NCBI GenBank assembly: GCA_963422735.1
Contig: OY730476.1
Span: 3,360,001-3,424,000 of the forward strand
Origin: Candidatus Latescibacterota bacterium
GTDB lineage: Bacteria > Latescibacterota > UBA2968 > UBA8231
Direction: 5' to 3'
DNA: 64,000 nucleotides
Part shown: positions 28,458 to 29,576 of the stretch, one piece after another
Layout of the letters: each line of letters starts with the position of its first letter
Position numbering within the stretch: the stretch's first letter is position 1
Notes under the pieces: generated by a model
What the model was told of the DNA's origin: nothing
Seen by the model: only the letters and a program-made list of their open reading frames with translations
Databases searched by the model: none
Position numbers and translations under genes: made by a program

Positions 28458-29576
28458 ATGGCAGCGGGCAAAGGCAGGGGCAGGGGCAGTGCTAACGGCA
28501 AGCCCTTCGGCGAGGACAAGGACAAGGCAATCGGCTTGGCACTCGCCCAAATCGAACGGCAGTTTGGCAAAGGGGCCATCATGCGGTTAGGCGAGTCAGT
28601 GGCAATGGACGTCGACGTCATTTCCACTGGTGCCATTTCGCTAGACGCGGCCCTCGGGGTCGGCGGGGTGCCCAGAGGTCGGGTCGTCGAGCTTTTCGGG
28701 CCTGAAGCCGCGGGTAAGACCATGCTGGCGTTGCACATCGTCTCCCAGGCGCAACAGACCGGCACGGCGGCTTTCATCGACGCCGAACACGCGCTCGACG
28801 TGAATTTTGCCCGTCGGCTGGGCGTTGATATCGACAATTTGCTCGTCTCGCAGCCGGACTCGGGTGAAGAGGCCCTAGAGATCACGGATACCCTGGTCCG
28901 CAGTGGTGCCCTCGACCTCGTCGTGATCGATTCGGTAGCAGCGCTAGTGCCCAAAGCCGAACTCGAAGGCGATATGGGCGACTCCCACGTAGGGTTGCAA
29001 GCGCGACTGATGTCCCAAGCCCTGCGCAAACTCACCGGGTCATCTCAGAAGTCAAGGACCACGGTGATCTTTATCAACCAGTTGCGGATGAAAATCGGCG
29101 TGATGTTCGGCAGCCCCGAGACCACCACCGGCGGTCGTGCCTTAAACTTTTATTCCTCAGTCCGCCTCGACATCCGCGGCATTGGCACGATCAAGGACAG
29201 CGACGAGATCATCGGTCGTCGCACCCGCGTCAAGGTCGTCAAGAACAAGGTCGCCCCTCCCTTCCGCGAGGCTGAGTTCGACATCATGTTCCGCGGCGAC
29301 GATGTAGGCATATCGCGCGAGGGCGATCTGCTCGACTTGGGCGTCGGCAGCGGTTTCGTCGCCAAAAGCGGCACTTGGTTTTCCTACGGTGGCGAGCGGC
29401 TGGGCCAGGGGCGCGAGAACGCACGCGTCTTCCTCCGCGACAACCACGAGGTCCGCACGCGCCTAGAGACCGAGGTCCGCCAAGCCCTCAACATGAAGGT
29501 CGCAGAAGTCGCCCCTTGCTTTGAGGGGGAGCGGATTGAAACTGAACGCAAAAAAGCAGAGGCCGAACTGGCCTAG
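28458..29576 (+). CDS. recA: Recombinase A
   Basis: [45 protein letters not shown]. Confidence 0.97.
29508..29542 (+). CRISPR. Solitary degenerate CRISPR-repeat-like unit inside the recA 3' end (no array)
   Basis: GTCGCCCCTTGCTTTGAGGGGGAGCGGATTGAAAC; last 17 nt identical to the unit at 54950-54986. Confidence 0.6.

Follow-up and report, generated by a model that had tools for sequence, protein, structure and literature searches.

The window analysed here, a 64,000-nucleotide (nt) stretch of a Candidatus Latescibacterota genome (G000, a single contig of 4.95 Mb, of which the window is G000:C1:3360001-3424000), carries within its recA gene a CRISPR-derived (clustered and regularly interspaced short palindromic repeats) segment, which is a solitary copy of the resident type I-C repeat. 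This unit, GTCGCCCCTTGCTTTGAGGGGGAGCGGATTGAAAC, occupies positions 29508..29542 on the plus strand, is 35 nt long, and lies in frame in recA (28458..29576, +), where it encodes 12 residues of a 372-amino acid (aa) protein. It is likely that the segment is a stray, nearly neutral and optional insertion that is decaying and serves as coding filler. The comparisons give no indication of a conserved role as a Cas5d cleavage signal in the recA mRNA.

The recA unit and its source repeat

The G000 genome contains a CRISPR array (3169196-3169447) of four identical 37-nt repeats, GTCTCCCCTTGCTTCGGTAAGGGGAGCGGATTGAAAC, with spacers of 34-35 nt. Genes for a WYL/WCX regulator, Cas3 (HD and helicase domains) and Cas5d lie directly upstream of the array, which is 220 kb from the recA unit. 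Comparison of the unit with the whole genome by blastn-short yielded an alignment to the array repeat over 37 columns, in which three positions mismatch and one gap of 2 nt is opened (E 2.2e-5 for the 4.95-Mb genome). The CRISPR origin of the recA unit is beyond doubt because this alignment extends over the full 37 columns at such an E value. An earlier reading of the DNA, made from the sequence alone and referred to here as the sequence-only reading, had placed a CRISPR-like repeat at 29508-29542 in sense orientation and in frame, and the position and the 372-aa open reading frame (ORF) confirm this. It had further noted that a second unit in the window shares the last 17 nt of the recA unit, which holds when the two are compared, and that both read GERIET, which is correct for the second unit if its longer ORF is read. 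Its statement that such a match is unlikely by chance in 64 kb stands only in part. Exactly two copies of the 15-mer GGAGCGGATTGAAAC are present in the window (29528-29542, + strand; 54950-54964, - strand), and 3 of 100 shuffles of the window gave two or more matches at up to two mismatches, which makes the coincidence weak or mildly unusual at the scale of the window; the genome-wide E value bears the statement out.

The last 17 nt of the recA unit match the array repeat exactly, and its final 11 nt, CGGATTGAAAC (29532..29542, +), are identical to those of the array repeat; they would constitute an 11-nt 5′ tag if Cas5d were to cut between 29531 and 29532. A residual hairpin is predicted by RNAfold at 29512..29528 (+), formed by CCCCTT (29512-29517), the loop GCTTT and GAGGGG (29523-29528). 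Its stem comprises 6 base pairs (bp), one of them G-U, with an energy of -11.3 kcal/mol, and is thus shorter than the stems of the array repeats of five species, which have 10-11 bp and energies of -17.6 to -20.2 kcal/mol. Through a T-to-G change at unit position 4 the stem base loses one pair (T4-A25 of the array repeat), and the base is altered further by the 2-nt deletion; the 3′ flank, ...ATTGAAAC, is that of the array repeat.

The unit stands alone, the nearest other full-length copy being 25 kb away. Its host gene belongs to the core and is flanked by radA-like and hpt-like ORFs, and the unit is not on a mobile element. Orthologues of this RecA are 84-96% identical. G000 has two recA paralogues, the second of which (G000:C1:3679421-3680512) is 65% identical and is without the unit; a search with the protein in 19 genus genomes likewise gave two RecA matches in 18. 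The net insertion amounts to 30 nt, or 10 extra codons in the RecA C-terminal tail. In Escherichia coli, the C-terminal tail of RecA has an autoregulatory role.

The type I-C locus of G000 is a remnant. It ends after cas5d, with cas8c to cas2 missing, and the Cas7 family PF05107 has no match in the genome. The Cas8c profile PF09709 was also without a match in G000, and is uninformative as it gave none in the control genomes either. The cas5d ORF (G000:C1:3168452-3169240; locus L024, 18452-19240) reads into the first CRISPR repeat. In the relative G018, genes cas3-cas5d-cas8c-cas7-cas4-cas1 (Pfam-verified from cas3 to cas1) precede an array of 70 repeats, and in both G018 and G042 the final cas5d codons hold a degenerate repeat-like stretch, DSTLACHPDEIEIL, in the same frame. 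This stretch marks the probable deletion site, as an array repeat recombining with it would produce precisely the junction seen in G000. Close orthologues of the G000 cas5d (88-90%) were found only in these two genomes, both of which have long arrays; when Cas5-family genes of every kind are counted, 17 of 31 genomes carry one. G000 also encodes a type III-B locus (G000:C1:896036-908000; locus L059) with cmr2-6, including genes for repeat-associated mysterious proteins (RAMPs), a csm6-like gene, cas1 and cas2. The repeat of its array near 907078, GTGTGAAGTGCTGCCCCGCTTATCAGGGGATTGAAAC, differs from the type I-C repeat and shares only ...GGATTGAAAC with it. Cas6 (PF01881) was not found in the G000 genome. 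Binding of the WYL regulator to the unit as DNA was considered, and no motif evidence for it emerged.

Presence, decay and divergence of the recA insert

The 30 genus genomes collected for recA comprise 25 close, core-clade species and five outgroup species. An insert is present at the identical recA site in 12 of the 25 close species (G000 and 11 others), and the site is empty in the remaining 13, where it reads GCAGAAGTGCC(T/C)GAAC and the short tail ends ...KVAEVPEHKEAEAELA. The five outgroup species have unrelated recA tails. Full units with the canonical hairpin are confined to G000 (6 bp) and G006 (9 bp, -17.3 kcal/mol), with G034 partly so; the canonical hairpin is therefore kept in 2-3 of 12 filled alleles, and the rest have non-canonical folds or none. 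In G018, G040, G042, G007 and G008 the unit is full-length and its stem is broken by mutation of the 3′ arm (for example, AAGGGG to AAGAAG or GCAGAGG). This arm has shifted in several species from G-rich sequence to GAG and GAA codons, which encode acidic residues. A further group (G009, G013, G033, G037) has lost the 5′ half of the unit and retains only GGAGCGGATTGAAAC. Two to three tandem copies of the 9-nt GATTGAAAC, read as IETIET(IET), occur in G006, G013, G033 and G037.

Mean pairwise difference among the eight full-length recA inserts is 0.25 per site (0.29 in the stem-loop and 0.19 in the 3′ flank), compared to 0.089 for all sites and 0.204 for third positions of recA. The divergence of the insert is close to that of recA third positions, and the unit therefore evolves like unconstrained sequence in which only the reading frame is kept. 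Comparison of relatives had been suggested as a way of finding a segment conserved at nucleotide level with covariation in its stem. The insert proved to be polymorphic and to diverge like third codon positions, and no stem covariation was seen in the recA inserts by inspection, without a formal count. In the array repeats a 10-bp stem is maintained, the G000 and G018/G038 types differing by paired changes. The array of G018 is of the CCCCTCG...CGGGGGG type, yet its recA unit is of the broken CCCCTTGC type, and it is apparent from such sequence comparisons that the recA unit does not co-evolve with resident arrays.

Nor does the insert track the nuclease. The recA stems of G018 and G042, the two species with a complete type I-C system, an orthologous cas5d and long arrays, are broken. 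Among the 24 core genomes of the tree, any Cas5 is found in 9 of the 11 that are filled and in 7 of the 13 that are empty (Fisher p = 0.21), counts in which related genomes are not independent. The filled state at recA requires at least six changes on the 29-genome tree, which was drawn from 4.3 kb of recA and the proteasome operon with the insert sites removed, and in which five forks are unresolved. Recombination between species could yield an equal scatter of filled sites.

These patterns suggest a course in which a stray repeat entered the variable recA C-terminal tail as an in-frame insertion, and would have been tolerated as 10 extra codons because the tail is variable and presumably acidic. 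The hairpin may then have been lost through point changes or deletion of the 5′ half, with gain of tandem GATTGAAAC copies in some lineages. For the source step, microhomology-guided copying or recombination from an array is suggested by the resemblance of empty sites at mpa, prcB and recA to the ends of the repeat (GGGAGGATG versus GGGGAGCGGATTG, and GATGGAAAG versus GATTGAAAC; likewise CGGGAGGATGCCATG versus GGGGAGCGGATTGAAATATG, and GATGGAAAGC versus GATTGAAAC).

Other solitary repeats and rival explanations

The recA unit belongs to a dispersed family, as the sequence-only reading had proposed, and this family extends through G000 and across the genus. The second solitary repeat of the window, GTCTCCCCTCACTTGGGCGAGGGGAGCGGATTGAAAC (54950..54986, -), is 86.5% identical to the array repeat and ends 1 nt before the ATG of a gene for a secreted leucine-rich repeat (LRR) protein (52612..54948, -; Pfam LRR_1, LRR_8, Dockerin and FlgD_ig), whose signal peptide-like start, MNVLFAIFVGLSLSA, follows the unit. 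Besides these two, G000 has three more full-length solitary units. One precedes prcB, after a pup-like gene (locus L026); another overlaps the mpa start directly after the lepB stop (G000:C1:1547181-1547217, -; L026 12181-12217); and the third is at the junction of a rearrangement or duplicated segment downstream of an epimerase gene (G000 2813603-2813639). Segments of the window at 58533-59013 repeat the sequence beside this last unit with 87-97% identity. The pup|prcB site is filled in 7 of 27 genomes and the lepB|mpa site in 17 of 30, and both display presence/absence polymorphism, the same types of decay and 9-nt duplications as recA. At mpa, nine of the 17 filled sites have lost the ancestral ATG, which leaves the in-frame TTG of the repeat's ATTGAAA as the sole start; this TTG apparently serves as the mpa start.

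A further 20 matches to the 15-mer were examined in relatives, namely the listed non-array matches of G007, G010, G011, G013, G033, G037 and G038 and one match each of G003 and G015. Matches whose coordinate or variant pointed to one of the three known sites, or to an orthologue of a site already examined, are not among the 20. The resulting counts apply among the matches listed, and constitute a convenience sample ascertained through one 15-mer. Seven of the 20 were dropped, six as not derived from the repeat and one as an array end. Rejected as not repeat-derived were the ERIE-coding stretches L239 and L256, the GGGGCGG...CCGCCCC palindromes L240 and L244, and L238, L242 and L253, which are without the hairpin part; L248 is the final repeat of an array, and so is not solitary. 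After orthologues were merged and the G000 sites added, 13 independent solitary sites were obtained. Nine of these end 0-17 nt ahead of a start codon on the same strand, belonging to prcB, mpa, the LRR gene, a PhyH dioxygenase, an 81-aa ORF, pdxS, a peptidyl-prolyl isomerase (PPIase) lipoprotein, a transketolase-like E1 and a methyltransferase. Of the remaining four, one is the in-frame recA unit, one lies downstream of a gene, one flanks a toxin-antitoxin pair in antisense, and one precedes a doubtful 50-aa ORF. Against 6.5% for random placement in non-coding sequence, which is our own rough estimate, nine of 13 has P ~1e-8. Repeats outside arrays are nearly all in sense, a strand bias that had been named beforehand as worth looking for. 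The pdxS insert, found in G038 and G007 (loci L258 and L259) and absent from the site in the other 27 genomes with a match, is approximately 66 nt long; it consists of about 31 nt plus the repeat, located 1 nt before the native AAAGGAG, and looks like a spacer-plus-repeat fragment of an array. Judged by sequence, the recurrence of sense-oriented repeats at start codons across the genus is clear, and may reflect either function or a bias of insertion.

It had been proposed that Cas5d cuts the recA mRNA at the unit, giving a non-stop message and freeing the stem-loop RNA and 87-aa ORF downstream, as part of a set of repeat-tagged mRNAs or 'CRISPR-repeat regulon'. The orientation of the unit, its 6-bp stem and the 17 nt it has in common with the array repeat accord with such a site, as does the retention of cas5d despite the loss of cas8c to cas2. 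A review (PMC5965381) describes recognition by Cas5d of the stem base together with the 3′ overhang, and a product with an 11-nt tag; this overhang is intact in G000. The solitary units of the genus, among the matches listed, are moreover nearly all sense and start-proximal. However, the stem base read by Cas5d is itself altered in G000 by the T4 to G change and the 2-nt deletion, and keeping of cas5d is explained by the deletion endpoint at the repeat-like stretch that relatives have at the cas5d 3′ end. A search for stem conservation with compensatory changes instead found hairpins in 2-3 of 12 alleles and a stem-loop that diverges by 0.29 per site, and the nuclease and the unit do not co-occur, given the broken recA units of G018 and G042, with their orthologous cas5d and long arrays, and the p value of 0.21. 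Units also persist where no Cas5 family member was found, as in G009. With the unit absent from 13 of 25 species, its stem lost in 9-10 of 12 and its rate similar to that of third positions, the regulon proposal is not supported for recA, and cleavage there is unlikely to be the explanation of the unit. About as improbable is that the solitary repeats are portable translation-start or insulator modules, in which the 3′ half, AAGGGGAG-CGGA-TTG, supplies a Shine-Dalgarno sequence and a start, with or without cutting by Cas5d, and of which the recA copy is a by-product with no role. The nine of 13 sites lying 0-17 nt before a same-strand start (P ~1e-8 on the rough 6.5%) and the nine of 17 filled mpa sites that keep only the TTG of ATTGAAA argue for modules of this kind. 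The bias may nevertheless stem from the mechanism of insertion, since native ribosome-binding sites resemble the 3′ half of the repeat and are a possible anchor for recombination; the G-run resembling a Shine-Dalgarno sequence is partly buried in the stem, and the sites are a convenience sample drawn with one 15-mer. Chance likeness, or convergent acidic coding of '...ERIET' with no CRISPR origin, is effectively refuted. ERIE-coding stretches can mimic the 15-mer, as in the gene for a 499-aa enzyme in G011 and G010, but these are without the hairpin part; the recA match, at E 2.2e-5, is full-length and covers stem and loop as well as the 5′ GTC, the empty alleles have clean boundaries, and insertions of this element occur elsewhere too.

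The fallback of the sequence-only reading, that the repeat is a neutral ectopic insertion, fits these data best. Several observations weigh against it. The G000 copy is among the best preserved, with its 6-bp stem intact and its last 17 nt exact, and the genome encodes a full-length Cas5d, so that cleavage would be physically possible in this strain. The genes recA, mpa and prcB are functionally related through DNA damage and the proteasome, and hits in all three look non-random. Neutral insertion alone would not predict the strong sense and start-codon bias of the family. The number of gains and losses is rough, as the tree draws on 4.3 kb of the studied loci and has five unresolved forks. 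As to whether the ancestral state was filled or empty, G000, which on this tree is sister to the other 23 core species, is filled at all three sites. It is interesting to speculate that the type I-C repeat is a spreading module, placed in sense at ribosome-binding sites and tolerant coding tails (recA, mpa, prcB, pdxS), that acts at the RNA level as a hairpin, Shine-Dalgarno sequence and TTG start which Cas5d can cut off. The CRISPR nuclease, or its loss, would then tune DNA-repair and proteasome genes, and the recA copy of G000, where cas5d is kept and Cascade lost, would be a live member. We regard this as doubtful.

With the recA segment read as a stray repeat, a piece of CRISPR array has here come to be translated as part of RecA, and sister copies have replaced the ribosome-binding site of mpa and apparently its start codon too. 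CRISPR arrays can, in this way, seed new coding and translation-start sequence in core genes. The filled, decayed and empty alleles provide a natural series for asking how repeats escape from arrays. They also advise caution, in that a CRISPR repeat in an mRNA, however well formed, can be taken as a sign of regulation only where its stem is conserved. What merits follow-up is the start-codon pattern seen across the genus.

Related systems, neighbouring genes and minor observations

Standalone repeat-like elements have been described in intergenic regions of cas loci; elsewhere in the genome, intergenic regions are reported to be depleted of them (Shmakov et al. 2023 preprint, PMC10120712). The units reported here are similar in being single, off-array, often partly degraded and tied to a resident CRISPR-Cas system, and differ in their location in housekeeping loci far from cas genes, inside recA and at the starts of mpa, prcB and pdxS. 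Viruses also carry solitary repeat units, some of which act as RNA anti-CRISPRs (Racrs; Camara-Wilpert et al. 2023, PMC10651486; review PMC8616872). In common with these, the present units are solitary and mimic a host repeat. The unit at 54950-54986 could be one of them, and an anti-CRISPR reading remains for it because it lies in a phage-like region, a stretch with matches to tape measure, Neck1, RecT, ParB and helicase families. In contrast, the recA unit is chromosomal and translated, and is not on a virus or mobile element.

CreA of the CreTA system (PMC9458426) and the crlRNAs (bioRxiv 10.1101/2024.12.27.630466) guide Cascade to promoters. They too involve degenerate off-array repeats, through which CRISPR-Cas acquires a role other than defence. 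Both need a pseudo-spacer, a target promoter and Cascade, whereas in G000 no Cas7 was found and the type I-C locus ends after cas5d; the recA unit, moreover, lies within an ORF, with neither a toxin nor a cas gene next to it. A Cascade-guiding RNA is thus not borne out in G000, where PF05107 has no match and the repeat of the III-B locus differs. Engineered Csy4/Cas6 hairpins placed in mRNAs control their stability and translation (PMC4604432), and a sense repeat hairpin in the 5′ untranslated region or between cistrons is the layout seen at prcB, mpa and pdxS. That system is synthetic and its cleavage has been demonstrated, while the natural layout here is known from sequence. On these comparisons, the recA unit fits an ectopic solitary repeat, and not a conserved processing site or a Cascade-guiding RNA in G000. 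Text searches of the literature listed no report in which a CRISPR repeat is translated as part of recA or provides a start codon, although supplements to the papers may list such cases.

Separate from the repeat, a conserved stem-loop of approximately 70 nt (29589..29658, +) lies between recA and the next ORF. Its basal stem comprises 15 bp (CGCGGGTCGAGGTGC/GCGCCTCGCACCCGCG), and alignment of 29 genomes with RNAalifold identified two pairs with two or more Watson-Crick types. At the gathering threshold, Rfam searches of the window matched only two tRNAs, and no family for this stem-loop. The 87-aa ORF that follows (29681..29944, +) has its own AAGGAGG ribosome-binding site and a start region conserved across the genus, and matched no Pfam family. 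A 45-aa ORF in the +1 frame, running from the TTG of the recA unit to a point before the 87-aa ORF, was rejected because intergenic indels are not multiples of three and the region folds as the conserved stem-loop. In a public run, X1, which is RNA by guess only, a 336-nt contig bridges 29450-29775 uncut at a depth of 36, compared to about 8.6 over the body of recA, and provides no evidence either way on cleavage. The greater depth between the recA 3′ end and the 87-aa ORF start may point to a distinct, more abundant transcript. In the stretch from the recA stem-loop to the next ribosome-binding site, some genomes have and others lack a palindrome of approximately 25 nt, (AAAG)GGCGGGTTTTAAACCCGCCCC, which represents a second kind of small hairpin insertion in the genus; it was seen downstream of recA in G002, G009, G010, G011, G012, G013, G033 and G037.

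Adjoining the LRR-gene unit is a gene pair for a RelE/ParE-like toxin and a helix-turn-helix (HTH) antitoxin (window 55077-55699). In G010, G033 and G037 (and G013 by matched variant; loci L243, L255 and L257), a solitary repeat is present at the other end of the pair, in antisense. The pup-like gene, located between dop and prcB (L026 ~8660-8920), ends in ...RYRQRTGQ and not in GGQ or GGE, a tail which presumably resembles the UBact form of the tag. Another dispersed element of G000 consists of ...CCGCCAAGGGGGCGGATGG(G/A)AC, followed by 7-nt tandem runs (ACCACTG, ACCACAG, TAACCAC) and then TTAAACAGTCC, and occurs around G000:C1 136922, 193510, 980035 and 1442845.

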